DNA of 63,977 nucleotides, the filler included, from Atractiella rhizophila (taxonomy: Eukaryota): the NCBI GenBank assembly GCA_021432655.1. It is 10 parts of 10 records of this genome, joined end to end, with 100 filler letters (N's around TTAATTAATTAA, not from the genome) between each part and the next. Parts side by side here need not be neighbours in the genome. Positions count along the whole stretch, not along the records: positions 8,108 to 16,110 come from MU272179.1; 9 more parts are not named here. One strand, given 5' to 3'. This document shows positions 4,519-54,926 of this stretch, piece after piece; position 1 is the stretch's first letter, and each line of letters starts with the position of its first letter. A model generated the notes under the pieces. It did no database searches, was not told the DNA's origin, and saw only the letters and a program-made list of their open reading frames with translations. The translations under genes were made by a program, and so were the position numbers.

Positions 4519-4770
4519 TTAAATGTAACCTTCCAATTCAATGCAATGATTGGTGGGTCCTCCGAAACTATTCTGTTCGTTTGGTTTGTTGCACTGATTC
4601 CGACTTCGATTGATGCAAATGTGTTTGTTCTGGGCGTTTGGTTTGTTCTACTGTAATGGTCTCAGCCAGTTTGCGGACCATTTTAGCAGACCAGTCGCCC
4701 AAGGGGGTCGGCGATAAAACTGACTGCAGATTTTCTCGAGATTGAAGCGCAAAACCATTTTTCGCTTGCC
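4519..4770. repeat. Partial copy of the repeat at 5410-5796 (direct part plus inverted part)
   Basis: 4570-4668 resembles 5460-5570 in direct orientation; 4683-4770 resembles the reverse complement of 5676-5796. Confidence 0.75.
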
Positions 4771-4969
4771 AGCCTATGCAGGTCTCAGCGAAAGTCGTTC
4801 ACGGGTCATTGACTCTAATGTGAGTCACGGCTTTGCCTGGGCTTTGCGCTGGATTTTGAAAACATAGCACAGAATTTGAGAAAGGTACAGCAAAACATAT
4901 AGACCACACCCAGACTTCGCTGGACTGTTTCTGCATACAAATAACCTTTCTGACGAGTTCTCTTATTAA

Positions 4970-5320
4970 GGAGGAAACAGCGGGAACGGTGCAAGCGTGC
5001 AATTCAATAGCAATAACACTTACAGTGAGAACATGGACAGGGACAACAGCGCGACTTCCGGTTACTACGCTACGACCGACTACGACTCCTCCATCAACAG
5101 TAACCCTGACCCTAACCAAATGTACCCAAGGATCACACCTTGGCTCCAACAGTCAACCTAGAGTAACCCAAGCTCTCTTTTTCCATCCTCTGTCGCCGAG
5201 GCTTGGCGATGCTGAGAGCTGTCAAGCATCGGATCTGACGGCGTGCCCAAAGTTCAAAATGAGGTAAATGAGGTTTAAAAGCACCTTGCCATCCCCAAAC
5301 ACTCTGTAAGACCTGCTTCG
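4970..5320 (+). mobile_element. Dispersed repeat; fragment of the element whose other copy lies at 28590-28890
   Basis: Matches the reverse complement of 28590-28890, e.g. GTTTAAAAGCACCTTGCCATCCCCAAACACTCTGTAAGACCTG and GACAACAGCGCGACTTCCGG. Confidence 0.7.
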
Positions 5321-5570
5321 GCTTCATTTTGGTTACAATTCTACCCAACTGCTGCGGCAAATGACAATCTGTGGGCGAGGGACAATTGGACATACAGTTG
5401 GTTCAGTTCGTTAAATGTAATTTATCGAGCCAATACAGTGATTGGAAGGAAATGCGTTTGTTCTGTTCGTTTGGTTTGTTGGTTCTAATTCTGACTTTGG
5501 CACTGATTCCGATTGTCAAATGCAGCAAATGCGTTTGTTCTGTTCGTTTGGTTTGTTCTAATGGTCTCAG

Positions 5571-5796
5571 CAGCAGAAGGGTCGCCGCAGGGGTCGGCGA
5601 TGTCGGGGTTAAGAAGTGGTCCAAAACTGGGCAAACTGGTCGCCCCCAGGGGTTTGCGTAAGCGGCCGGAGGCGTGCAAGCGAAAAATGGTTTTGCGCTT
5701 CAATTTTGAGAAAATTTGCAGCCAAAAAGCAGGTCAAAACTGGTCGACCAGTTTTATCGCCGACCAACTCCGACCCCTTGGGCGACGGGTCTGCTA
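5571..5796. mobile_element. MITE-like element with imperfect ~27-bp terminal inverted repeats
   Basis: Left end CAGCAGAAGGGTCGCCGCAGGGGTCGG versus reverse complement of right end TAGCAGACCCGTCGCCCAAGGGGTCGG; no TSD seen. Confidence 0.5.
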
Positions 5797-8007: not shown

Positions 8008-8107
8008 NNNNNNNNNNNNNNNNNNNNNNNNNNNNNNNNNNNNNNNNNNNNTTAATTAATTAANNNNNNNNNNNNNNNNNNNNNNNNNNNNNNNNNNNNN
8101 NNNNNNN
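8008..8107. other. Artificial 100-nt contig linker N/TTAATTAATTAA/N; also at 16111-16210, 24206-24305, 32294-32393, 40370-40469, 48439-48538, 56502-56601, 60648-60747 and 62730-62829
   Basis: Identical spacer with stop codons in all six frames; genes are cut at the linkers. Confidence 0.98.
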
Positions 8108-8849
8108 CGCTCCAACACAATCCGCCAGCCTTCGATCTGTTCGTCCCCTAAGCCGGTGCGGAGTTTAAGGGCCGCACGCTCCTTGCTCCGCCGCGTTTGC
8201 GAGTCTCGATTGAAGAGGGAGGGGTTAGACAGGTACAGGCTTTCGAGGTGTTGGTCGACGTCGGGTACGAGGGAAGCGCTCGATGCCTCTCCATCTACTC
8301 TCCCTTTCCCTTTCCCTTTCCGATTTCCTCCTTCGCCAGATGCGGGGTCGTCGTCCTCTTCGTCTTCGGATGGGGAGGACGAAAGAGATTCGCCTGGGCC
8401 TTGGACGGAGAAAGTAGAAGGAAACTCCTCGTCGCTCCCGAGGTCGTCATCGTACACCTTCCTCCCTCTCCCTCTACGCTCCTCCTCCTCCTCTTCCTCA
8501 TCGTCGTCGGAGACGGCTTCGGCAGCGGCTATTATTGACGCTTTAAGAGCGGGATCGAGGAAGTGAGATGTAGCTTGTAAGAGGTCTTCTTTCGTTCTAT
8601 ATATCGTGCGACACATTAGACAATGCGCCACAGGGTTAAAGTGGTGAAATAAGAGTAATGTAAAATGTAAAATGACTGACCTTGCGCCCCCTTTCTTCCC
8701 TGGCACTCGTTGTCCAGCTCCAAACATCGAAAAATCGAAACGTCCTCCATTCTCCTCTCGCCCCTTCTTTTCCCTCTCCACCTTTTCATCTACTGCATCA
8801 CCTCTCATCTTTTCTTCCTCCAACATACCCATTACCTCCTCTTCCTCCA
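8108..8849 (-). CDS. CUE3: CUE3/ASCC2-like CUE-domain protein, 3' part (5' part hidden in the mirrored segment)
   Basis: Contains the C-terminal motif LESLYLSNPSLFNRDSQTRRSKERAALKLRTGLGDEQIEGWRIVLE typical of fungal Cue3/ASCC2; probable in-frame intron at 8597-8680. Confidence 0.75.
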
Positions 8850-10112
8850 TCTTCTTGCCACCACACCCCTTCGGACTTATAGCATAGGGTCACTCAAGAG
8901 ACGCGAATATACTCTACGAGAAAAAAACTGCTAACATACGTCCGAAATGAACAGCCATCGAAAAAGCACGCATGCAAGTAGTTAGATAAAGCGGAACAAT
9001 CTTCGACGATTAAGTTTGAGTCGGTAGCCTGAGAAAACCATGCCGACCAGTCGCCTACGGTTTTGCGTAACCTAAGATGGATAGTAGCCAAGTCCATTTT
9101 CTAGCACGGAAAGAAGTAGTTTGTCGTAGATTGACTAAACTAAAGCTTTCCATATAAACCAAAACCCTACTACTGTTGAAACAATCAAGAACGAAGTGCG
9201 AACAAAATAACGAGTGCAACCAACTTATCAGATGGATAGGTTGAAATGGAACAGCTGTGAAAGGCTAAACGACGGAGACGATGTCGTCGGCGAAGACAGT
9301 CGGAACGCAGAAGTGAGAAGCCCCTACTTTAACTAATCACCGATCGAAAAGGCAAGAGAAAAGCCCGAAGCGAAAAGGGTGACACCCCTCTGTTCGACAA
9401 AACTCCGCAATCCTAACCCCCCCACCCTTGAGAAACGAGCGACCACGCACACCTACCTTACTTGCCTGTCTTGATTAACGATCCGGTCCAGAACGATAAC
9501 ACGAGCCGTAAGGTAAAGGGGCAAACCGAGAAGATAATACCTCTCTCCACCTCTCGCTCTTTGGCTGTTCTAAACACTGCTGAGTCAGCGATATAGCTTC
9601 CATAAACACTTGTCACACACATGCCGTTCTTCATGAATTCCTGTTGTCTCGCGTCATGTATGGTATTACGGTATTACGTCTGTGGTCATGATAAATACTT
9701 AAGACGATTGCAAATGTTCTGACTACAACGACACGTACGACGTGGACCGATCGAATAGCTCTGCGTTATGACTACGGAGTAACACGTCGTACGCGCTCTC
9801 TACAAGGGGAACGCCTACTACCTTTAGTACCTAATTTTTGATAAGATAGGAACGTTAAACATTTACTATCGAAGGGGAAGAAGTTTCGAAGATTGTTCGG
9901 AGGTTCCTGGTGAGCTAGAAGCGGAACAAAAGAAGGTTGAGCGGTTCCTCCACTAGGATCGATGCAAAGCGGTTAGTTGCGTCTGATGAAGGTGCTTCGC
10001 AGGAGCTGCGGCTCATCCCCGCTGTTGAGAAGATTTTTACAACGTGGGACGAGCAACATATTTTAGGTATTTTAGGTAGGTCCACATGAAAAACGTGCAC
10101 TACACTAGAGGA

Positions 10113-10481
10113 ACACCTATGCTACTGAGGAGGCATCTCAGTACCAAGGGCAGATGACGAAGCTATGATGAAACCCCTTAAGGGACAGGAAGGTTGTGGA
10201 GAAGAGAGGGGTAGTAAGAAGGGGAGTAACGTTGTAAGTCCAGTACGTAATCCACTAGGACATTACTAACAATATAGAGAGGAATGAGGTGATTAAGTAG
10301 AGAATACTAACAATGAAATGAGAGAACGTAGAAGCTACAAACAAATACCATAGTAACCATAAAGTACAAATATATTCCGGATAGCATGTCGATACATTTA
10401 AGTCTGAACAAGGGTCAGAGTTGAGCGTAGGTCGTGAGGGCGTAAAGATTGGAATTGGAAAGGCATATGCGGCATAAGTGT
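10113..10481. mobile_element. Solo LTR (369 bp) within the mirrored segment
   Basis: Read backwards it has TGTGAATACG...CGTATCCACA termini and flanking AGGA duplications (10109-10112, 10482-10485). An empty site with a single AGGA is present at 12398-12401. Confidence 0.75.
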
Positions 10482-10570
10482 AGGAGGGCTTTAGCTCAGT
10501 TGAGCAGTCCGTTTTCACGTAATAATAATGACTCTCCTATAGCAGATTGCGTTCTTGAGTCATGTCAATT

Positions 10571-11648
10571 TACCGTCTATTTTATCTTTAGGGTGGGGAC
10601 GAGGGTAACGACAGGCGAAGGGGACGCAAGGAGGGAGTTGATGAGGGAGTCGACGAGGTAGACGAGCGGGAGAGAGGGTGTCGCAGCGGACGGGTGGAGG
10701 CGGACGAGGAGGGCGTGTATGCGGCAGAGGAGTGTAGGTGTGGTTGCAGTTGTAGTCGTAGTTTCAACGGCAGCCTACGACGGTGGCACCTACACGACTC
10801 ACACGACTAGCTGACACGCAAACATATATCGCTATCCCACCACGCACTTGACAAACTCAACCGCTTCCTCTTCCTGCAACCCAACCTTCCCTCCCACCTC
10901 CTGCTCAACCATCGTCTCGACCAACGCCGATAGCTCGTCGTGTAGAGACATAGGAGAAGGCGACCCTATGTGTCGCTCTTGCTGTTCAAGCTTCCTCTCT
11001 ATGTCTCGTAGGAGTTTGACGAGAGAGAGACGAGGTGTGGCTTTAGTAGTAGGCGAGAAGAAGAAGGGGAGAGAAGGGAGATGCGGTTAGAGAGGGAGAG
11101 GAGGGATCTTGAGAGGCGGAACTAGGTAGAGTTTGAGGCAGAGGATGTGGTGGAGGCGGAGGAGAAGGAGGCGTGGGGGTAGAGGCAGGAGGTTAGCTGG
11201 TAGGAGAGGTAGGAGAGGGAAGGGTGTCGGTTTAGGTCGCACGTCCCTTCCTATCGCGAGCACTTGCGACCCGGTGAACAGCTGGAGCGCATAATGATGC
11301 TCCTCCTCTATGAAAGGAAAAACCTCTCTCTTCTCCCTCTCCCACCCACCTACGTGCGATACAACGCGCTGGAAAACCTAGGACTAGGATATAGCTTGCC
11401 AGAGGAGGAAGAGGGAGGACGGTAGCCATACTCGCAACTTTTCTTCTCCTCTCGCCTATTTCCCTTTCCCTTTCGATCTCTACTTCTTTCGGACCTGAAC
11501 CTACCTTGTTCTCCTCTCCTCCCCTATCTTTTATCCTAGGCAAGACAAGATCGGCACGAGGGGGTAGAAAGAGGACGTGAGGAGGCGGCAGCTGAAGAGC
11601 TCCTTCTGCACGCTCCCTTTTCGCACCTTCTCTACCACAGTCAAAATG
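10571..11648. CDS. CUE3: 5' part of the CUE3-like gene, readable only as the complement left to right (MADKIEIPPLL...RIRSVLAVLPHLSPALLRRRLLEEDVRGKSVEEMVSVL)
   Basis: The complement gives ATG at 10571 and 359 open codons ending in a CUE-like domain. The final C joins TG at 8849-8848 (minus strand) to give in-frame ...VSVLLEEEE. Confidence 0.85.
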
Positions 11649-12930
11649 NNNNNNNNNNNNNNNNNNNNNNNNNCGCTATATACAAACGCACAGTCGATCA
11701 GCACACGCAGCACATTGGCCAAGAGGGAAGCATCAGACGGAAGAAGAAGATGCGGATGATGACGTCGGTGTGGAGCAGAGAGAGAGCAGCAGTATGTGCA
11801 GGAGGAGCAGTAGCGCACCTGCGAACGCGACGCTCTCGCACAGAGAGCCCAGCAGAGGGAGCAGCACAGAGAGTAGTTGAGGCACGAAAGCAGCGCAAGC
11901 GGACAGCAATGCGACCAGGACTGCGACCTCCACCCTACCTGCCAACCCAACTGTACTGACTCCTTGCGCCAGACGAAAACAGCTCACGCAACACACAATG
12001 CACTATATACAAACGCACGAGTCGACTCAGCACACTCAGCAGCCACGTGAATACAGCATACGACGGCAAGTTTAAGGTTGAGATGACGGCAGTGCTGGAT
12101 GCGAGTGAGACTGGGAACGTTGAATGTGCATAGTGACGACAGGCCGGATGTAAGCAGGAAAGACCAATGAGGAGATAGACAGGCGACGCAGATGGAAGAG
12201 AGGAGGGAGCAATGCATAAGGGAGGAAGTAGTAGAGGAAGGAGAGACAGAACAATCGGACAGCAGCACGGGATGCAGGACTTGGATTTCCATATGACCTG
12301 AACAATGATAACTGAGAGAAGAGGTCTTGCGAAAGACAGGGAATACCCCTCAGTAATAATAATGCACTTTTGACTGACGAGTTGACTCGATTTCGGGAGG
12401 AGATCACATCACGTGCAAAAAGTACACCTGGATGGATTTTATGGATTTTATACAACGAGCAGGGTGCAACATTTTTAGAAGAGTTGTCGCCCCTACTCGG
12501 CGTCGAGGACGCTTCGTGGAAGTAGTCTGCGTTGATTGGCGAAACGTAGCTAGGATCACCTCCTTGGCGAGTTGGAAGAAAACAAGGCGAAGATCGAGTG
12601 GTCCTTGGAGGCTTGTTAGAAGCTTTGAAGAAGGGGAAGCTATCATTTACAAATTGCAAGGATAGAATAGTTTTTAATCCATGATTTCCATCATCCGCAA
12701 GGGAACATCTCTCGCGCATGCTGCACAATGAGGCATCAGTATTGCGTCTCGATAAGCTAGCCAGGTGCAGCATGCACAGCAACATCAGTCTTGTAAACGT
12801 TAGCAGAATTCATAAATAGTACTGGTGTCTGCATTATGGCATTATGGTATGTACTGCGCTCTGTTGTCCTTAAGTACTTCTTGCCGTACACACACTGTTC
12901 ACAAATACCTTCGATATAGCGACTGAGTCG

Positions 12931-15488
12931 TCACAAATCTTGTCGGTTTCTCGCTCTCCACCTCTCTCCATAATAGAAGAGCCAAACGGGAAATGGAATA
13001 CCGAGCACAATAGCAAGACCTGTCCCCAGCAATGAGTTCTGTCCGTTCATTCCATCCACACGCACCGGCGAGCAAAGAGTTCCCACCCCCCAATCCTAAC
13101 GCCTCAAACAGCTTGTCTCCCCACAGTGGGAAAGCGAAGCCGAAAAGAGAACGAAAAAGCTAGCCACTAATCAATTTCATCCCCGAAGAGTGAAGACGCA
13201 AGGCTGACAGAAGCGGCTGCTGTAGCAGAGGCAGCAAATCGGAAAGTGTCGACAAGGTAAAGTTGGATAGGTAGACTATTCAACCAACGTGAGCAATAAA
13301 ACAAGCGTGAAGCAAGAACTAACAAAGTTGTCATCATCCCAAAACCAAATATACCTTTCGAAATCAAATCAGTTAGATGCTGTTTGATGAAGAAAGGCAC
13401 GATCTTTACCTGAACCGATGATAGGTAGAATCCAATGCGTTTTGGCATCCGCTGACCAGCCGTACCAAAAGAGTCCGATGGCTGAGTTTGAATTAGCAGC
13501 TTCTAGCAAGGCGAAATAGATTGATGAACGTACGCACGAAAAAGCTACCGACAAGTAAAGCCTGCATACAATCGTCAAGAAAAGAGCATCTCATCTCAGC
13601 GCAGAGAACTCACTGGGATACGATATTCAGGCTTCCCCACACCACCGTTCTTCTTGGATAACTGTTGAACCTCTTCAACTTGGCGTTGAGCATCTACCGG
13701 AAAGACTTACATGAGCGTATATTGCCGCCGCCGTCTTCGCTCCGAAAATGGCAGCAGAAAAGAATCCTATGCCTAGTCCGAGGTAGGTAAGCCCAGTAGA
13801 GCCTGCTTTGAAGCCATATGTCTCTCCAAAAAAGGATCCGAAGGTGGTGAACATCAAGTAAAAGATCCTGCGAATCGGAAAACACCAGATGAGAAAACGG
13901 AGCAGAACCATCGTTCAGTACTCAACACTCACCCGTACCTAAAAGCAACTTCAGACAGGCGGGTAAGAAGAACGTTTGGGACATACATAAATGCCATGTA
14001 TGTGCTCAGTAGGAAACACACAAAGTTTCCAAAGAGCAACACGACTGGCCGCGAGATATTGACCCAGAACAATCGCAACTATCAGCCTATATCAGCTCTG
14101 GAAACATTGGAAGCATTTGATGAGGCCAAGCGAATGGGGTCTCACTTTGTCCTCCTTGTCGATTGAGAATTCGGGATAGGCTTTTACAAACTGTTCCATC
14201 TTCCCTTCCCTCTTCGCGATCCTCATTCTGATTACTGGGGCATAAGTTTCCGAGAGGAAAATGACACCAATCACTGCCGCAATGGCCGAAGCACCTTTTT
14301 TCCTCCTTCAGTTCAGGATTCTGCAAGCGAAGATAAAGATAAGATAGAAGGTAGCTGACCGGAGACCACGACAAATGTCCATTTCACTCCCACCCCTTGA
14401 GTAATATATCCTTCAGGGCAGTCAGTACAAGCGACGACGACAAAGTGTGAGAGTAGAACCTCCTGCAATCGGTCCGATCACGCCTCCTAGCAGAGGACCC
14501 ATGGCGTAACTGCCATAAAATTTAGTTCGCCCCTAATGTCTGAGCAACAAGGAATTACACAGCCATTGCTCCAGCCCTCGACTTCTCGTCCCACAGATCG
14601 GAAATCGTGCCACCTCCGATACCTGCAGCCGCCGTCAGAACAGTCTTTCAGAATGGTGCGACGAACCAACTGGTGCAGAGCCAGCGAAGCCAGCTGGCGT
14701 ACAACATTTTCGTGAGCAAAATCAGTGGCAAAGAGAGAAGGGACAAACCGAGAAATCGCAGCCCAATTAGGCCACCCACAGAATCGGTGAAGCCGCAACC
14801 GACGTTGAAGCCACAAAAGGCAATATTCGCGATATGCAGAACCCAGGTACGACCGTAAATCTCTACAAAGACCTAATCAGCCTCTCTCTGCATTCATACG
14901 AAAGAGATATGTACCAGAGAGTGGACCGAAGATGAGTGGCTACAAGATTCGAGGTCAAGTTCACTTTAGTGACATAAATAAGCAGCAAACGAACCCCAAT
15001 AGCCAGTGCAAGGAGAAAAATGCATAAAGTGAGAGCAATAACTGTTTGATCTCTCAACTCGTATTTTACGGCAATTTCTGGTAATCCAGGAGCCATCATT
15101 GAACTTGCTATTTGCGTTGTGTCATTTCGGTTCTCTTGTGCGAAAATGGAGCCTGAAAGCTCACAGATGGGACCAATGAAGGTGTACATGGATACCTATA
15201 CTCCGAAATTTATGTCAACTCTGCAAAATTATAGGGATAAGAACAAGAGCATACGACAGCAGCTGCCGTCCACTTCCTGGCATTGGCCCAATTACGTGCA
15301 TTCTTCGGATTATTCTCCCAATCATCATCTAGGATATTCTGCTTCTCGCCGTCAGATGGTACCGCTGTTTTCGTCCCTTCCTCCGCATCACGAAGTGTCT
15401 CCCTGTCGTCCTTCAAGTCCTGCTCTTGCGTCTGAGGAGATTTCTCATCACGTGAACTAGCCTTCTCCAAGCTTGACCTTACGTCCAT
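12931..15488 (-). CDS. MFS multidrug transporter, DHA1 family, multi-exon
   Basis: Exon peptides WENNPKNARNWANARKW, ASSMMAPGLPEIA, LSETYAPVI, GKPEYRIP, GLFWYGWSADAKTHWI, QLYLVDTFRFAASATAA, GGGNSLLA; stop after GERWRARNRQDL. Confidence 0.9.
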
Positions 15489-15819
15489 CTTGATCGTGTA
15501 AACTCATGCAATGGATCGTAGAAGGACAGAGAGAGGAGCAGCTTGTACATATAACCTCGGATGGGGCACCCAGATCCGTCACGATGAGCAGTAGTTGCTT
15601 GGTCAAAGCAGCAGTAAGATGCCGACGGAGAAAAGTCATTCCGGTGGATGGTCAAATTTTGGGAATATGTGATGCATGAAAGCGTGGAGGACACGAGAAC
15701 TCCTTCTTCATGAATGTTTATGGTGAAACAAGCGTACAGGATATTCTATTCCACTATACTTTCAGACAATATCTTGAGAATTGATACACAATTCTTCACT
15801 TCATCGTTAAAGCAACACT

Positions 15820-16110
15820 TCATCTCGATTGTCCGTGGTACCCATATCCCTGCTGCTGTGGTGGTTGGCCGTATGGCGAGTACGGTTGCTGTTGAGGGGG
15901 AGGATATGAGCCTTGTTGTGGAGGGGGAGGTTGGTGCATCGGGTATTGATACTGGGGGTATCCTTGTGGCGGAGGAGGGGATGTGTATTGCGACGGCTGT
16001 GGTGGGTGTGGTGTCGAATATGACGTTTGGTATGACACCGGTGTGGATGGCGGAGGCAATGAGGTTTGCTGCACCGGCGGGGGAGGAGGCGGGAGGCCAT
16101 AGGATCTCTG
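15820..16110 (-). CDS. 3' end of a Pro/Gln/Tyr-rich protein (truncated by contig end)
   Basis: Open frame to the contig edge encoding PPPPQGYPQYQY...GYGYHGQSR*. Confidence 0.6.
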   Translation of the reverse strand, partial: QRSYGLPPPPPPVQQTSLPPPSTPVSYQTSYSTPHPPQPSQYTSPPPPQGYPQYQYPMHQPPPPQQGSYPPPQQQPYSPYGQPPQQQGYGYHGQSR

Positions 16111-16782
16111 NNNNNNNNNNNNNNNNNNNNNNNNNNNNNNNNNNNNNNNNNNNNTTAATTAATTAANNNNNNNNNNNNNNNNNNNNNNNNNNNNNNNNNN
16201 NNNNNNNNNNTGCCACATCTTAGGCATGTATGTATTTCCGACTTCTAATTTCTCTGCTAACAAAAGATATATATTGTGGCAAGAGAAATGAAATGGATGT
16301 TCAATGTCTTTGAGTGCGATTCCACATATCCGCAAGTTCTCTACCAAATTCACAGAGCTTGACCGTGAGCGAATCTCCCTATTGTCACGAAGGTACCAGC
16401 TGTAATGGCTCCTTTCTAGATGCCTTGGAGCGTTCCTAAATGAATAGCCTAGCAGTTCGTGCCTTACCTCTTATCTTTCACATTATAATCCAACGTCCTC
16501 ACTGGGGATTTCTTCTTAATTATATCGAAGAACTGTATCCTGTATCATTTCTTCAGCGGTTCGAGTTCTTTCTACAATATCAGGTCATCAGTGTAGGCAC
16601 TTATGTTGGTTCACGTTGGTTGCAGAATTCGTTCCTGTCAATAGTTCTCCAATAATCTCTTTGTATGACCAAAAGGATCTTGCTCACTCGAGTTATCTAG
16701 TATAGCTTCACAGAACGACTGTTGCTACTTGCCTCGTCAGTCTCATTTACAACCTTTCAGGCTGAGCTGAATTTGACTAGGA

Positions 16783-24205: not shown

Positions 24206-24429
24206 NNNNNNNNNNNNNNNNNNNNNNNNNNNNNNNNNNNNNNNNNNNNTTAATTAATTAANNNNNNNNNNNNNNNNNNNNNNNNNNNNNNNNNNNNNNN
24301 NNNNNCTTCCCACCATCCTCCAAATGCCTCGTTGGAAGAAGAAAGGTCCGACAGAGGCTCAGGAGGTAGCTGCCCAGAAAGAAAAGGATTTTGTTGAGGC
24401 TGTAAATACTTATTGGGAAAGGAGAGAGG

Positions 24430-26303: not shown

Positions 26304-28900
26304 TCATTTTGCTCCTATAACATTTCCAAGTCTTGCTGTCGTCCGTTGGCGCAAAGCATATGACGTCCCATTTGTAGAAGTGAATCGCTTCCATGTCTTC
26401 TTTCCATCCTTGCTGAGGAGTACATCAAACGCTCGCCCTGCGTCCAGGATCTCGAACTGGGTCTTGGCTAGTTGTGGGCCGTTGATGACTGCTGATTGAG
26501 TTGTTATCCTGCCGTTTGGTAAAGCTACTGATCCATTCCCAATTATCAGCTGTTTGACGGAAGGAGGGGGCAGGTTTCTTTGGTTCTTTAGATAACAGTC
26601 CTTGCTCATCAAATTTCCGGTCGCCCCCTCATCTATGATCGCCTGTGTTGATGCGAACCCTTCCTATGGCCCTATCTTAGCTGCTCCAACTTCGATAGTG
26701 ATACGAAACAACTTCCCTCTTGGCCACTTTGTTAGTGCTTCTGACTGTTCTTCCGTTGTCGCCTCTCAAGGAGCCTTTTGCAGCAGTTTGTATCCTTGTG
26801 CCAACGGTCTCTGTTCTTCGGTTTGGATTGGTATTCCTTCGTCCTCGTGCACTGCTCGGTTTGATGCTACCAATGTGCAAAGCGGTCGTGGTGGCAGCTG
26901 ACGGAGCCTCGCCTGTTGCCTCGTTCTGATTTTCAGTAGGCTTTCGTTTGATCCGTACTTGATTCTGAGTCGATTAATGCAGCTGGAGGGGTATGTGTGG
27001 CTGGTGCTGGAGGGGTATGTCAGAGTTTGGCACCGTTTTAAGCTGCATTCGTGCCACTGTCATTTGTGGCTCTAGTTTTCTTTCCCCTTTGCCGTTTCCC
27101 TCATTTTGCCAAGTTCCTTAAGGTATAAAAAGCCCATTATAACTTCATTGTAATTCATTCCTTTCGACCCTTGGAATCAACAGGGTATATGTGACTGGTG
27201 CCGTTTCCACATGCTCTGTTGCTGTACCTCTTCTGGATTTGCCCATGGTTGAACGTGCTTTGGTTGTTGCCACGCTATTGACTGTAACTATTGTCGGTGA
27301 GGAAGTTTGTTTTTGCCTTGATGGGAGTGTTTGCGTATTGGATGGGATAAGGTGGTGATATCTCTCAGTCTGATTCGTCGGTGTATTGTGTTTATCAGCA
27401 CGCTCTCCAGCCAGTACTGGTGATTCACTTACTCCCAAACCAGTGGTGGTATAGGAGGGCGTGCTCTTGCAAGGCTTAGGCAAGAGCCTGCACCCTCCCC
27501 CCAGTCGTTGCCCGCGGAATTACATTCGAAATGTCGACGGGACCTGTGCCGCTACAGGGGCCCGACGTTAGGACTTTTTCTATCCCTCTTTTCTCCAACC
27601 TCTCTACTAACTTCTTCGTCCAGTGCAGGAACAACCCATTTATTTGGATGAATGAGGAGATTGAATTCTTGATGGGAGTAACAACAGGCATTTCCCTTTT
27701 CTCTAGAATGTTTGACCATCCTGCCACCTCACCTATCCTTGCCTTAGATGCTGGATACGGAAGATGATGAGTGGACTGCATCAGTTTGCAGGACGTAGGT
27801 ACTCGCCTTTCTTCGTCGTGAACATGCACTTCCATCTTTCCGTCACTTCATCCTCTGCCTCCTTGTCCCTTCCCATTCCACCGACCTCTGCTCGCCATCT
27901 TGAATCAGGAAAAACTTCTGGCTCCTGCAGCTCCATCGAAATTGCTTTTCAATTTGGGGGACCGACGGCATGTTACTACGGTGGCTTCTACCTCCCCATT
28001 CCATACCGCAAATGTTGCAGTCGTTTGAGTTGGAAGGGTCCCCGGCGAGAGGGGAAACGAGGGAAACGGTTTATGGGAGATGCTGCTATGCCCCGTCAAC
28101 GAATCGTTTGAACATGGCATTGTATGCTGCTCGCTCATTTGAAAGGCAGTCTCTCCACGCTCCGTGTTCGATTCTGGTTGGAATTAGGGGTGAAGATAGT
28201 CGGGGTTCAATGATCGTTCGGTGTGTTGCGAGGGTAAGTTGTTGAAATGATGGGTTCGAACGGTTCTGCGTAAAGGGTTGCTAAGGCTTGAGTGATATCT
28301 TACTGCTTTTCCATATCGCGAACATCTCCTCCTTCTCCCTTGCTCTCTCCTCCTTCTCTTTCAATCACTCCTCTTTTTCCTTTCTGGCTTCTCTAAGGTC
28401 CGGCCCCAGCTTCACAACCGTATCCACTACTTCTCTAACCGTCATAAGGCCGATGAAGTGGGTTCGGATAGTTCGGCGGAATGAGAGTATGACTCACATT
28501 AACCGGTCCATTATACCCCTGGGGGCCATTTCTCATCAAAGTTCTGGGCTGTTCCGGCGCTCCATATTTTGTTTCTGCACCTTGCTGGATCCGACAGGTC
28601 TTACAGAGTGTTTGGGGATGGCAAGGTGCTTTTAAACCACATTTACCTCCTCACTTTTGAACTTCGGCCGCGTCGTGAGATCCGATTTTGACAGCTCTCA
28701 GCATCCGATGGACTCATCAAGTCTCGGCGAGGAAGAAGGAAAGAGAGCCAGGGTTACTCCGGGTTGACTGTTTGGGGTGTCGTAGCATGGTGTGACCGGA
28801 AGTCGCGCTGTTGTCCTTTCCCATGTTCTCCTTGTGAGTGTTGTTGCTATTGCATGGCACGCTGTCCGCGCCGTTTGCTCCTTCATTTTCCCTTGTCAGG
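26304..28900 (-). mobile_element. Degenerate Ty3/gypsy-like retrotransposon gag-protease region
   Basis: Retropepsin-like QAIIDEGATGNLMS...IIGNGS...FEILDAGRAFDVLLSK at ~26410-26645; upstream broken gag-like ORFs; the 5' part is repeated at 4970-5320. Confidence 0.65.
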
Positions 28901-29988
28901 CCAGCCTTCATGCGGAATCACATCCTTGCGCATGTACTAATAGAACGTGCCAGCCAAACCTGTCCCGAAACAGGACGTTTGCAGTTTAAGGAGCAGCGCT
29001 AACCCTCGCTGACAGCAGCGGGCTCCAGCGGGCTCCAGAGGGCCTTGCTTCACGGTCGTGGATTGACATTGCTGGAACTTTCGTGGACTGGTTCGTCGAC
29101 GGAGTTGCACCGCGTCAGCCCAACATGCGATCAGGAAGGCCACGCTCCACGCTCCCATTTCAATGCTCCTAAATTTCAGTCTGAGGTGCATGCAAGAAGC
29201 GAGCTCTCCCATTTAAATAGTACTTCAAAGAAAGGCCATCAACCTGCTCTGGCTTATATCCGTACACTGGGTCAAGTTTTAAAAAGAAGAGAAATCCTCA
29301 TAAACGTTATCTGTCCAACGGATTCTGGGTGTGTGGCCTATATTTTGCTGAACCCTTCTCAATTTCGATGCTATGTTTTCAAAATTCCAGGGAAACGCTC
29401 ATCGTGGGACTCATTTTAAGTCAAAACAGAACTAATTCAGAGACGCTTTGCGGTACGGTACTCTAATCTGCCGTGGGGTTGAGCAAACATTAAAGGGGGG
29501 GAGAGCCACCTTCAAAACTGCAAATCACGATTGCGCTCGGAATAGATCCTAATCCAACTGTGAACAGCGCCAATGAAAGCGCTAGCCACACATGTTTAGA
29601 AAGTACTCTCTATGGGAATTTTCGTTGCAAAGTAAAATAATCGAAGAATGAAAACCTCACCTCAAAATTTCAAACTACAGTTAATCACCACACTATCAAA
29701 TTTCGCTGTAGATAGTTCTGTACTGGAACAGGAATGCCTTTGAGTTGACGGAATAGGCGGGATAAATGAAGGGGAGCAAGAAAGCATATCACCGCCTTTC
29801 AGATTGTGTGAAATGAATGGATCAACAATGCAAATTTTAACTATAATTGAAGTCGTAGTAACGGATTCCTTAGGACAAAGTAAGTCAAGAGCCTCGCCGT
29901 CATCTGCAAAGTCAAAATTAGTGAGACACTCTCACATTTATCACCACTGCGACATTAAGACTAGAAATAAAGCCATACAAATTAGCGC

Positions 29989-33565: not shown

Positions 33566-34628
33566 TTCATGACGGAGGGGGTCAGGCACCACATGGATAG
33601 GATGTGGCGAGCACATTCCCATGTGACTCCCGTACAACTAAGTGTCCTCCTGTCCCTTCCGCTCCCACACTTTCCAATGTACACGTACTCACGTCATTCA
33701 CAGGTTTTACGGCTCCACACTTGTATATCCCCTCTGCTCCCCTTGCCTCGACCACCCCTCCAGTTTCATTTCAGGCTCTATCGCTGCATTCAACCTCGCC
33801 ACAACCATGGCCATCGGCAATTAATCGAGAATCATGGAGAGAGTGACAGGTGGTGAAGGAGTACAAAGCCAAGGACAAAAGGGGTGAGTGAGTATGATGA
33901 GCTCCCACTAGCATCACCGCTAGTTTAAACAGTATTGTAATTCAAGAGTATTGCAATTGATATCTGTTCACTTTACATCTACTATCTACTATGAGGCCTA
34001 TAAGGGATCCTTACATATCCTATGAAGCATATTGAGAAGGCATTATGAAAGGTAAGCTCCAATGAAGACCTCTCCAGTGGAGGTTCTCAAAGGTTAATTG
34101 GAAGTCCAATCCCAAAGGCGCCAAAGGTACCTATGAAGCCTATCATAGGCGGATACCTTCCCAGCAAAGGCAGACACCTTCCCAGGAGCCAATGGACCTA
34201 TCATACCTATTATAGGTCATCATTGGCTCAAAGGCATGGTGTCAGATTTTGCTGATGTTGGTCATGCTGTGGGCATTTGCACATGAGACTGGCGAAACGC
34301 GGAGGGAAAGAAGATGCAATGCGAGGGAGACTACGCTGCGCCCCTGAAAACTTAAGGTGCCGGAAGTAGCAAGCATCGGCAACGTACAACACCCCATACA
34401 ACACCGGTACCGAAGGTCACCTGACCTGTGTTTCAAGTTCTTGTGAGGACAAATTTTCTTCCGTTCTCCTTTAGCCATCGTAACGTCAGTCAATCCCTTC
34501 ATAGCAATTATGCTAGCGTTATCTCCCCCGCTTCGTTAGGGGAAGCGATGTTTACTTTTGGTAATGTAGTTTACATTGACTTCCCAGAGCTACGTTGACT
34601 ACAGTCTGACAGCTCTTTAATATGATTA

Positions 34629-34655
34629 CAACAACAACAACAACAACAACAACAA
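34629..34655. repeat. (CAA)n microsatellite
   Basis: About 9 CAA units. Confidence 0.9.
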
Positions 34656-35951
34656 AAATTAACTCCTCAGTGGGAAGGAGTGCTATCAAAAATCTGTTTT
34701 GTAGTTTTCATCTAAGGCCTTAATAAAGCATATTTACAAGAGGGATAGTCCATAGAGTCAATATTGTAGGTTGAGTTTGAGGTTCTGCCACTTAGGTTGG
34801 GACTAGGTGGTTCGCACCATAGCGGCTATCGTACCGGATCGTACTGAGAAGGAGAATATCCGGACAGTACGTGACCCCATCCCGGCCCGTATCGTACCGT
34901 ACTATGTTTTCAAACTTTGAGACGGACAATTTCCAGCAAAAAAGGCGGACTACGGCCATAGTGCAAAGTTGTGTAAAGCTAACTTTCTTCGCTGAAAATT
35001 TCTTCGCTGAAAATTACCCGCCAATAGCAGTGATATTGCTCTGATATTGCCGAATTGGCTTTTTTAACTTGTATGAAATATAAACTTGGTTGAAATTTAA
35101 TGCTTGGCGACGCGCAGTCACTACTATCCCTTACGGGGCCATGGGGTACCCTGACAAATGGGGTACCTCACTCAAATGACTATAACTCCCTCAGATCGTA
35201 TTTGCATGCTTTCCCCTTGCAGATGCAGCATATCATACTTGTAGTGAATGATTTTATGCATCAAAATAGCAAAGAAAAGGTACCAAAATTGAGAAATTCA
35301 TAAAAAAATGCGGGAGACAGCTGTTTTTATGCAATTACTCAACACTCCTGGGACTCTTTGGCTTGAAAATCGATACCCAAGTTCTATGACATTACAGTTA
35401 CTGATAGCACCACTTGAAATACAAACCCAACATTAGGTTACTGAGATATACAAATACCTCACGGTGAGGAGCGCAAAAATCACGTGAACTGAGCAAACTG
35501 TCTGCGCAGACCCAAAATGAAAGGGAAGACGACATGTGCGGCCCTGCACAAAGCGCCAAGTTTTACAACCAGTGTGGGTCACTGGTACCCCTTTGGTCAG
35601 TAAAAATGCCTCCCTTTTTGAAGGAGGATTACTCCTTCAGTACTCAACAGATTTGCACAAAAAGTGGATAGAAATCTGCAGAAGAAGCTGAACTTTCAGT
35701 CAATGTTTTCTTGGAACCTCCAAGTCCACTGTCCACTCATGATCGATAGGTTTACAAAAAAGTTGCCCTGCTAAATTAGGTGCCCCAAATGTCTGTAAGG
35801 CATAGATAGTACTGGTGATAAAGGGTAATCCACTTAATAGTTGAGGTAAGATCACATGATAAAGACAAAATTTTTACACTTTGCCTGAAATGGCTATTTG
35901 GAGCGGTTTTGAATTAGGAAACTTAAAGTTAAGATGTCAAGAAGGCTGCAT

Positions 35952-52634: not shown

Positions 52635-52708
52635 TATAAAGCCAGAGGATCCCTTGGAGGGCAGTTTATCGATTGGGATGAAAGAGGGGCATGACTTGGT
52701 CTCTGCCC

Positions 52709-52715
52709 TTTTATA
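52709..52715 (-). promoter_or_regulatory. Candidate TATA box (TATAAAA) of the GCN4-like gene
   Basis: GGTATAAAAGG lies ~75 nt upstream of uORF1. Confidence 0.5.
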
Positions 52716-52879
52716 CCACTCGGAGGAGTCCGCTAAGCCCGCGAATTACCGGACACACGAACTCCACGTCCACCGCGTTGGGCGTCAAAAACGAAAAAAA
52801 AGCTCACATATACACAGCTTTCCACCTTGCCAGTTCGCGTTCTCGATGGACTGGNNNNNNNNNNNNNNNNNNNNNNNNN

Positions 52880-54848
52880 CGGGCTTTGAAATAGTTAGGA
52901 AGCCCAGTGCACGGATAGTGAAACCTACAGACGCAAAACTTGCTGTAAAGTCCTTTTACCTGGTCATCCATACCGATACTCGAACAACGAACGTCCACTT
53001 CTGCACTTAATTACGCGCTCTGTGACATCACGGCGGACTTCCTAATTCAACAAGGAGTCGCTCGGGAAACGATTGATGAGTGAAGCACCACAGTTAAAAC
53101 TCAACAGACGTTCCCGATACTGAAGCGAGAAGAGTACGGGAGGTGAAATGTAGTAGACCATAGAAGGGTGCAGGTAGGTTCGGGTCCTTTTGCAACCTTC
53201 ACGGCTTCTTCGACCGAAAACGGACGGATAAGACCGGTCGATATTTTAGGGCATCAAAAAGGACGTTAGGCAGGTGTTAGTCTTTTAAAAGGTACGAACA
53301 TGTTTCTCCTCTTCTTGTGTGCCCTAGAGGTAAGTATAAACGTCCTAACCTCTCCTTCGCGAGCTTAGACTACCGCCTACTTTAGCTGTCGAAGAGCCGC
53401 GCAAACTTCTAAAGGATCTGGACGCTTGCCGATTCATGAGCATTTTCCGTGTCATCTCCGCTATCACCGCGTGAGGCGCATAGAGCTTAGCACAACGCTA
53501 TATCACTGGTCTTTACGTGGAAGTCCTGTTTGATTATGTACCCATGCCAGTTGTCTACCGTGAATCACCTCCCAAACTCCACCGCGTGTTTAAGATTACC
53601 TCCTGGACTGCCTTTTGCTGCTGATAGTAACGGAAAAACACACGGTATCTTCGCCGTCCTCCACTCTACATTACGACCACGTCGACCTCACTGCCGCTCC
53701 GCCGCTTTACGTCTTCAACCTGTCTGGCATTATTAACTAAAATCACTAAGTTTGAAGACGTACTCTCTTCGTTATTCGCTTCCTATACAGTTTCCCGTCC
53801 ATTGATATAGACAATACCACCTTACGTTGAGACTGTCTTCCCTGGCTTTAAACTCCTCGTGCACTCTAAAGAAACAAGATGAACCAGACAAGAGAGGAGA
53901 AACGCTTACCTGTTAAGCTTATCATCAGTGGTCAAGTGTCGCACGGTTTACTATACGGAACACTAGATTCACAGTTTGAAGTCATGTCAGGTTTCAAGTA
54001 AGGCAGTCAGTAAAATCTTCACCGGTCGGTTCCAGTCCTAACGTCCCTTGGGTCGGGGCAAAGGGACTTGGTGGAGGTCAGTCGGGGTCAGTCTGCTTCA
54101 ACTTTTCCTTCAAGTAACCTCATGTATAACTGCCTAAAGGTGATGTCTCTTCCCACGGCTTAAGAGCTGAGGAGTGTACGTTCGGAGTGCCGAAGAGACC
54201 TTTTGTGCTTTGCTAGACCAAGCGCTTACTGAAGATACTGGAGTTGCGGTCATGGACTGGTCGATCTAGTCGCCAAGAGCGGCGGACAGCGAAAAGACTC
54301 AATCAAAAATCCGTCGAGACAGGCGCTACCTCATCGCTTTCTCCCCGTTTATTTGTGCCGTGCAGTAGGAAGGTATATTTCTACTTTCTTCTGGAGAGGA
54401 AGGGACGCAAGTGCGCAAGTGCTCAAGCAAAGAGAGTAAGTGCAAGGTGAACAAAGGACAAAGGAACACTTTCTTAGACGTGAGGTCAAGGGGTGACTGA
54501 AGGTGCTGTCGTTCTCGGAGGCGTCGTTTGTGACCGCCCACGTAGTAGCCTAGGAAAAACTGTGTCGTGTCGTTTCGTTTCTGGTGTTTCTAAGGTAGCT
54601 TTCACCTAGAGACCTAGAAAGAGCTTCAAGAACGTGGGGAATAGATAGGGCCAACGGGTTTTCCATAGAGAAATCGAAATCGAGAAAAGAACCAGACGAC
54701 GTCGTTGGACTGAGAACGAACGTAAATCCCTCGCGTCGTAGTATTTTAGGATCGGACACAGGTTGTTTGCGCTTAGCAAGGGGTAGAGAGAGCAGTTACT
54801 CCGTTCAATCGACCTAAAACATTCCCACGGGTCAGGTAGCTCTTGCGC
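52880..54848. other. Second mirror-written segment (reversed, not complemented) following a 25-N gap
   Basis: 54830-54848 read backwards is CGCGTTCTCGATGGACTGG, identical to 52836-52854 immediately before the gap. Confidence 0.85.
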
Positions 54849-54926
54849 GTTTGGTTAACAGTTTTCAGCATCCCTATTTCCTCTTCATTACATTACTACG
54901 AATCAAGTGTAAAATCCTACCAAACA

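Follow-up and report, generated by a model that had tools for sequence, protein, structure and literature searches.

A 2.8-kb block written in reverse letter order beside a 25-N gap conceals part of a putative CUE-domain protein gene in an Atractiella rhizophila assembly

Can a kilobase-scale stretch of a fungal genome be the mirror image of its neighbourhood, that is, the same strand with its letters in reverse order and no complementing? The question is raised by positions 8850-11648 of the DNA analysed here (hereafter the window: 63,977 nt, linkers included, made of ten pieces of the Atractiella rhizophila assembly GCA_021432655.1), where a block of 2799 nt ends at a run of 25 N. We know of no polymerase or recombination reaction that yields reversed, uncomplemented copies. 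As described below, the block is real DNA written backwards and not a biological mirror repeat. It is almost certainly an assembly artefact, in which a gap-filling step would have added 2799 nt of probably long-read-derived sequence reversed and uncomplemented, leaving 25 N behind.

Layout of the locus and the mirror match

The pieces of the window stand in falling size order (8007, 8003, 7995 ... nt) and are separated by 100-nt linkers, each consisting of 44 N, TTAATTAATTAA and another 44 N. The block belongs to the piece 8108-16110 (from MU272179.1), within which an exact run of 25 N occupies positions 11649-11673; the sole other run of 25 N in the window is at 52855-52879. Mirror relations were searched for by BLASTN of the plain-reversed, uncomplemented window against the window itself. 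One long match was obtained, 8850-10832 against 13654-11674, with 88.96% identity over 2011 columns and E = 0. The remaining rows comprised its reciprocal, a second diagonal within this region (10482-11089 against 12401-11714, 73%) and three short low-complexity self-mirrors of 65, 27 and 26 nt, the latter two inside the (CAA)n run at 34628-34655. When the window was compared with itself by ordinary BLAST on both strands, none of the 16 rows fell in 8850-13654, which excludes a direct as well as an inverted repeat as the relation between the two stretches.

A preliminary description of this DNA had reported a mirror-image segment of 2.8 kb abutting a 25-N gap and had proposed that it be reversed without complementing and aligned to 11674-13654. 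The gap is present, and local alignment of the plain-reversed 8850-10832 with 11674-13654 gave 1790 identical columns out of 2012. The relation that it had called a letter-by-letter reversal, between 8850-~10108 and ~12402-13654, proved to be real, with limits at 8850-10112 and 12398-13654, but not letter-perfect: after plain reversal there are 18 differences in 1264 columns, eight of which are one-base indels (seven extra letters and one missing letter in the block copy). Positions ~10800-10832 had been quoted correctly as the reverse of the sequence starting at 11674; these first 33-42 letters are alike, whereas 10113-10832 and 11674-12397 are otherwise only ~71-75% alike. As to the 2.8-kb segment as a whole, all of it does read backwards, but it is not merely a copy, because the 816 nt beside the gap (10833-11648) are the otherwise missing gap sequence; BLASTN with the reversed window found no partner for them in the window. 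The features of the piece, with the strand where one is assigned, are as follows.

8108..8849, minus strand: native 3' part of the CUE-domain protein gene, coding for residues 361-606 once the frame is restored (homologues P0001-P0052)
8850..10112: mirror-written second copy of 12398-13654, containing the MFS 3' end (~8850-9575) and the DNA that flanks it on the 3' side
10113..10832: mirror-written 5' flank and first 88 codons of the CUE gene (start codon equivalent to 10571), hereafter R'
10833..11648: mirror-written true gap sequence, 816 nt (coding for residues 88-360 of the CUE protein, among them the predicted CUE-domain region)
11649..11673: 25-N gap in the record, with no real gap left after reversal of the block
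11674..12397, plus strand: edge of the right contig in native orientation, unlike the supported sequence (k-mer score weakly positive), hereafter R
12398..13654, plus strand: native counterpart of 8850-10112, with the same MFS 3' end and 3' flank
12934..15371, minus strand: MFS transporter gene interrupted by numerous short introns (homologues P0053-P0067 with PF07690/PF00083; joints with CT..AC ends in contigs of runs X7 and X8, see below)

Contigs of public runs read the block backwards

Public sequencing runs were located with 12402-16110, and Logan contigs of four runs (X1, X2, X7 and X8) were placed on 8108-16110. X1 and X2 represent one sample, probably DNA, with alleles that in several places are not those of the window. 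X7 is transcript-like, skipping many short stretches with CT..AC ends. The comparison is one with contigs only and not with raw reads. Contig depth was full over 8108-8849 (X1, X2 and X7) and over 12380-16110, and it fell to zero in all four runs across the eight bins of 8909-11044. X8 has next to no cover left of 12647 (0.31 in one bin) and is hence uninformative there. Scraps with a depth of 11-19 at 11045-11578 were considered as support for the block as written and rejected, being short pieces with long loose ends.

The loose ends of the contigs lead into the block in reverse. Behind 8849, X1 and X7 continue with 11648-11619 in plain reverse (30 of 30 letters); before 11752, the same two runs have a loose end that matches 11085-11056 in plain reverse, again in 30 of 30 letters. 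Behind 11715, X7 corresponds to 10790-10761 in plain reverse, and before 12398, X1 corresponds in this way to 10139-10113 (27 of 27). Since these four loose ends match the plain reverse, DNA and RNA of the fungus alike pass from 8849 straight into the block as read backwards, beginning at 11648. In addition, one contig bridges the whole interval. Record 9 of X2 (3719 letters) places its letters 1193-1928 on 8108-8849 and its letters 335-376 on 11674-11715, and the 816 letters that it holds between 8849 and 11674 equal exactly the length of 10833-11648. The true distance between 8849 and 11674 is, according to this contig, 816 nt.

Reversal restores a putative CUE-domain protein gene

When 8108-8849 and the reversed block are joined in a script, the minus strand shows a single open frame of 606 codons. 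Its initial Met is equivalent to position 10571, from where it crosses the join at residue 360 and runs to the edge of the piece; the calculated chance of 360 random codons staying open is ~3e-8. The longest ORF of the block measures 138 aa as written versus 359 aa reversed, and two native control stretches show the opposite. The gene also contains an 84-nt in-frame intron at 8597-8680, which is supported by a joint in X7 (8596->8681) and has CT..AC ends.

The product of 8108-8849 has 52 homologues of 640-850 aa in basidiomycetes, several of which are named CUE domain-containing and which place the fungus among the basidiomycetes, and among five homologues scanned with Pfam, the CUE domain (PF02845) was above the cut-off in two (P0034 and P0051). 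A profile of all 52 homologues matched the record as written at profile positions 502-619 (123.6 bits), whereas with the block reversed the match extended over positions 93-619 in one frame (141-147 bits). The mirror-encoded 360 N-terminal residues by themselves display weak pairwise similarity (best E = 0.002 against a database of eight proteins). A CUE-only mini-profile, for which only six of the 52 homologues contributed segments, produced no matches in either DNA version, and Pfam assigned no families to 10 intron-broken ORF pieces of the CUE and MFS genes. Family membership of both genes is accordingly taken from homologues and not from their own ORF pieces.

In tblastn searches with five MFS proteins, the block gave no matches as written versus 14 when reversed, covering residues 295-433 of P0053. 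This protein, assigned by NCBI to Atractiella rhizophila, is the closest named MFS protein, and its last residue (433 of 433) maps to 12934 by tblastn. Aragorn found no genes in the window and none in its plain reverse.

The consequence of the fault is visible in the public annotation, where a protein of 185 aa, P0068 (Atractiella rhizophila according to NCBI), stands in place of a gene with no fewer than 606 codons in the DNA. P0068 is the closest named protein, and no other close one is of similar length; it begins in the wrong frame at 8501, then enters the true frame, and at 8344 and 8416 it carries the alleles of X1/X2 and not those of the window. The homologue search found no close protein of at least 364 aa for the CUE gene.

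K-mer statistics and other backwards stretches

Native DNA is asymmetric under reversal, so that a k-mer score can mark backwards DNA independently of alignment. We used a strand-symmetric 4-mer score that compares each 500-nt window as written and reversed, trained on the rest of the sequence. The background had a mean of +44.5 (sd 19) over 211 windows, only three of which were negative. By contrast, all 15 windows lying wholly inside two blocks, the one at 8850-11648 and a second one described below, were negative (-25 to -54). Change points recovered the known edges of the former (8858-8864 and 11578-11695), and its partnerless 816 nt (10833-11648) score backwards like the remainder.

The second block adjoins the other run of 25 N directly on its right side:

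52855..52879: second 25-N gap
~52880..54863: block 2, which reads as backwards DNA (statistical assignment; right edge at the change point 54863-54864)

All six windows wholly inside block 2 were negative (-25 to -47), and the total length of its ORFs of at least 60 aa rises from 681 aa as written to 1361 aa when reversed. No long frame was found across any trial join, and the reversed ORFs gave no likeness to a nameable protein. K-mer statistics, ORF totals and the position at the gap together suggest, on statistical grounds, that block 2 is backwards as well. The region 34322-34984 is an isolated outlier (k-mer sum of -47 to -65) with no gap, partner or ORF gain, and we regard it as an unverified candidate for a backwards fill of a fully closed gap.

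These observations bear out the orientation fault suspected in the preliminary description, together with the checks proposed there. The comparison with reads, carried out here on contigs of public runs, favours the reversed reading and spans the block, and reversal restores the 606-codon frame along with protein homology. The ORFs inside the block as written had been considered spurious, in agreement with the restored frame and with the rise of MFS matches from 0 to 14. A search of the window for similar segments at 25-N gaps did turn up a second backwards-looking block, the one at ~52880.

The diverged edge of the right contig

The duplicated part of the block does not agree equally well with the right contig throughout. 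Over 11716-12397, R and the block version R' are identical in 504 of 711 columns (70.9%, i.e. ~29% different), and R' is the version backed by the runs, with X7 agreeing with it after 11715, X1 before 12398 and X2 record 9 at 11851-11919, where the latter has exactly 11 R' letters together with the R' spacer length of 125. Positions 11920-12348 of R have no cover in the four runs, and the contigs of X1 and X2 have 61 letters there instead. Both ends of R, on the other hand, agree with X2 record 9, which shows one mismatch over 11674-11715 and none over 12349-12427 and which, like R, joins 12349-12397 directly to 12398. We also considered R as a mosaic or as the reverse, complement or reverse complement of R' and rejected these possibilities: apart from the two exact ends, only the same orientation scores, with 55-85% per 40-mer.

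Two explanations of R appear about equally likely. According to one of them, 11716-12397 is a real, strongly diverged and degenerate second allele of the 5' region of the CUE gene; according to the other, it is a faulty end of a poor contig. The k-mer score of R in native orientation and the exact, real sequence at both of its ends speak for the allele, as does the coexistence of two forms in one sample, since the X1 loose end before 12398 has the block version and record 9 has the junction 12349-12397|12398. The same can be said of a repeat unit of ~373 nt that is present in one form and absent from the other. A faulty contig end would better account for the missing cover at 11920-12348, with the 61 letters in its place in X1 and X2, and for the pattern of changes between R and R', in which there are 52 transitions to 94 transversions and C-to-G changes outnumber all other types (33 of 145), unlike natural divergence. 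Moreover, R has a shifted CUE frame with no Met, and the transcript-like contig of X7 follows the block version. Either explanation of the divergence would account for a gap filler seeing no overlap at this place.

Origin of the fault

Taken together, the reading that we consider almost certain is that a gap-filling step produced the block. The left contig, ending at 8849, would have been extended by 2799 nt of long-read-derived sequence, which was presumably written in reverse letter order, uncomplemented, with a 25-N placeholder left behind it. Read backwards, such an extension would consist of the whole true gap of 816 nt (10833-11648 from right to left), followed by 1983 nt that duplicate 11674-13654. 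Its overlap with the right contig may have escaped recognition either because the first 680-720 nt of that contig are ~29% different, or because the string had already been reversed when the overlap was checked. With the overlap unrecognised, the gap would have been treated as extended or 'overfilled' and not as closed. The source of the insert is probably a long-read consensus, which fits the seven one-base insertions in 1264 columns, and the program may be PBJelly or one that is similarly built, as suggested by the 25-N run and the flank-extension and 'overfilled' behaviour. Our literature search returned no published report of a reverse-without-complement fault in PBJelly or any other assembler, including the accessible portions of PMC4195908 and PMC7642942.

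It is also conceivable, although rather unlikely, that the fault is real but arose at another step, such as scaffolding, editing by hand, format conversion or the merging of assemblies or haplotypes. The difference of ~29% over 11716-12397 looks as if two assemblies or haplotypes had been merged, and the X1/X2 alleles of P0068 at 8344 and 8416 imply that more than one assembly or haplotype is in circulation. Against this, the block follows the contig end directly, without any N, and its true proximal end (11648) faces the N run, an arrangement that fits flank extension and overfilling by PBJelly; so does the placing of 2799 nt where the true gap measures 816 nt. The seven one-base insertions in the duplicated part and the recurrence of the same pattern at the second 25-N gap likewise favour the gap-filling step. 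Finally, a record that is correct as written, holding a genuine kilobase-scale mirror repeat, is vanishingly improbable: its only support is the record itself, apart from the existence of short homopurine mirror repeats in genomes, whereas in three runs the contigs lead from 8849, 11715, 11752 and 12398 into the block as read in reverse, a single contig with 816 letters at this place spans it, and the block as written has backwards k-mer statistics, no MFS matches and broken frames.

Implications

The biological import of the block is nil, and its value lies in a warning about this assembly and perhaps the pipeline behind it. The record conceals a complete, putatively CUE-domain gene, repeats the MFS 3' end in a form that cannot be read, retains a gap that is in fact closed, and invites spurious ORFs and 'orphan' sequence. 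With at least two such stretches in the genome, gene catalogues and language-model training data derived from it carry backwards DNA. We tentatively suggest, as a possibility falling only a little short of its opposite in likelihood, that the fault is systematic, in which case flank extensions and gap fills derived from the opposite strand, gaps closed with no N left included, may be backwards in this assembly and possibly in others from the same pipeline. Public fungal gene sets would then silently lose or truncate genes. Since the k-mer score separates such stretches from native DNA, it could be used to find them across databases with no need of reads, and to clean assemblies.

Comparison with known systems

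Mirror repeats known from biology, which form H-DNA or triplexes, are homopurine-homopyrimidine tracts of tens of bases with a short spacer. The block shares with them the formal symmetry, namely, the same strand in reverse order. Unlike them, it has arms of ~2 kb that are a mixture of coding and non-coding DNA and lie 841 positions apart, and it uses all four bases (A207 C105 G219 T147 in one 678-nt part). In contrast to mirror repeats of genomes, its arm as written is absent from the contigs of the runs.

In inverted repeats, palindromes and foldback artefacts of long reads, the arms are reverse complements of each other. Foldback artefacts resemble the present case in having a duplicated arm beside a join. 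In the block, however, only the uncomplemented reverse matches, with 0 of 16 self-BLAST rows falling in 8850-13654, unlike in inverted repeats and foldbacks. Long reads with missed adapters, according to the available part of PMC3504050, yield two arms.

A further resemblance is to the gap filling performed by PBJelly. The accessible portions of its description (English et al. 2012, PMC3504050) define gaps as runs of at least 25 N, let extensions of the flanks be spliced in and call 'overfilled' those gaps in which the extensions have no identifiable overlap; the default minimum gap is given as 25 in the corresponding part of PMC6240028. These portions of PMC3504050 describe no reversal of the inserted string, in which respect the block differs. 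Both runs have exactly 25 N, a length that PBJelly may leave but that other tools could also write. As in PBJelly flank extension, the insert is spliced directly onto the contig end. As in an 'overfilled' gap, 2799 nt were placed where the true gap is 816 nt, with 1983 nt duplicating the right flank unrecognised. The inserted copy carries one-base insertions, as a long-read fill might.

Backwards-scoring DNA beside the second gap

Outside the first gap and its plain-reversed block, the window contains one further gap of the same size:

52855-52879, second 25-N gap of the window

Immediately to its right, ~2 kb of DNA looks backwards by the k-mer score (a strand-symmetric 4-mer score comparing the sequence as written with its reversal, negative values being backwards-like), with all six inner windows negative and the change point at 54863. 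Reversing this block doubles the ORF totals, and no mirror partner of 52880-54863 was found within the window. The score also dips to the left of the gap, over 150 nt (~52700-52854), a dip that is not resolvable.

An isolated stretch, 34322-34984, likewise scores as backwards-like (−47 to −65), with no N run adjoining it. It could represent a closed gap with a backwards fill; alternatively, it could be merely unusual non-coding DNA surrounding the (CAA)n run at 34628-34654.

Contig edge and closest gene model

The contig edge beside the first gap, 11674-12397, differs by ~29% from the version backed by the public runs, and its substitutions are unusual, C-to-G being the commonest and transitions to transversions standing at 52:94. 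Within this edge, the reading frame of the CUE-domain protein is shifted and has no start. Furthermore, a ~373-nt unit located here is present or absent among forms from one sample.

8108-8522, minus strand, region of P0068 (185 aa), the nearest publicly available gene model

The P0068 model starts at 8501 in the wrong frame and enters the true CUE frame at 8313. Because at 8344 and 8416 it carries the alleles of X1/X2 (public runs from one sample) and not those of the window, the record behind P0068 and the window are separate haplotypes or assemblies.

Window layout and other repeats

8008-8107, 16111-16210, 24206-24305 and so on, linkers

Each linker reads N44-TTAATTAATTAA-N44, the pieces are sorted by decreasing length, and reading features across the joins is invalid. 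A direct repeat with a period of ~280 nt spans 1637-2295 (1637-2013 versus 1919-2295, 94% identical). Finally, 4720-5725 and 28595-29390, located on two different pieces, share inverted matches of 50-180 nt (82-90% identity), such as a dispersed repeat or the remnant of a transposon would give.
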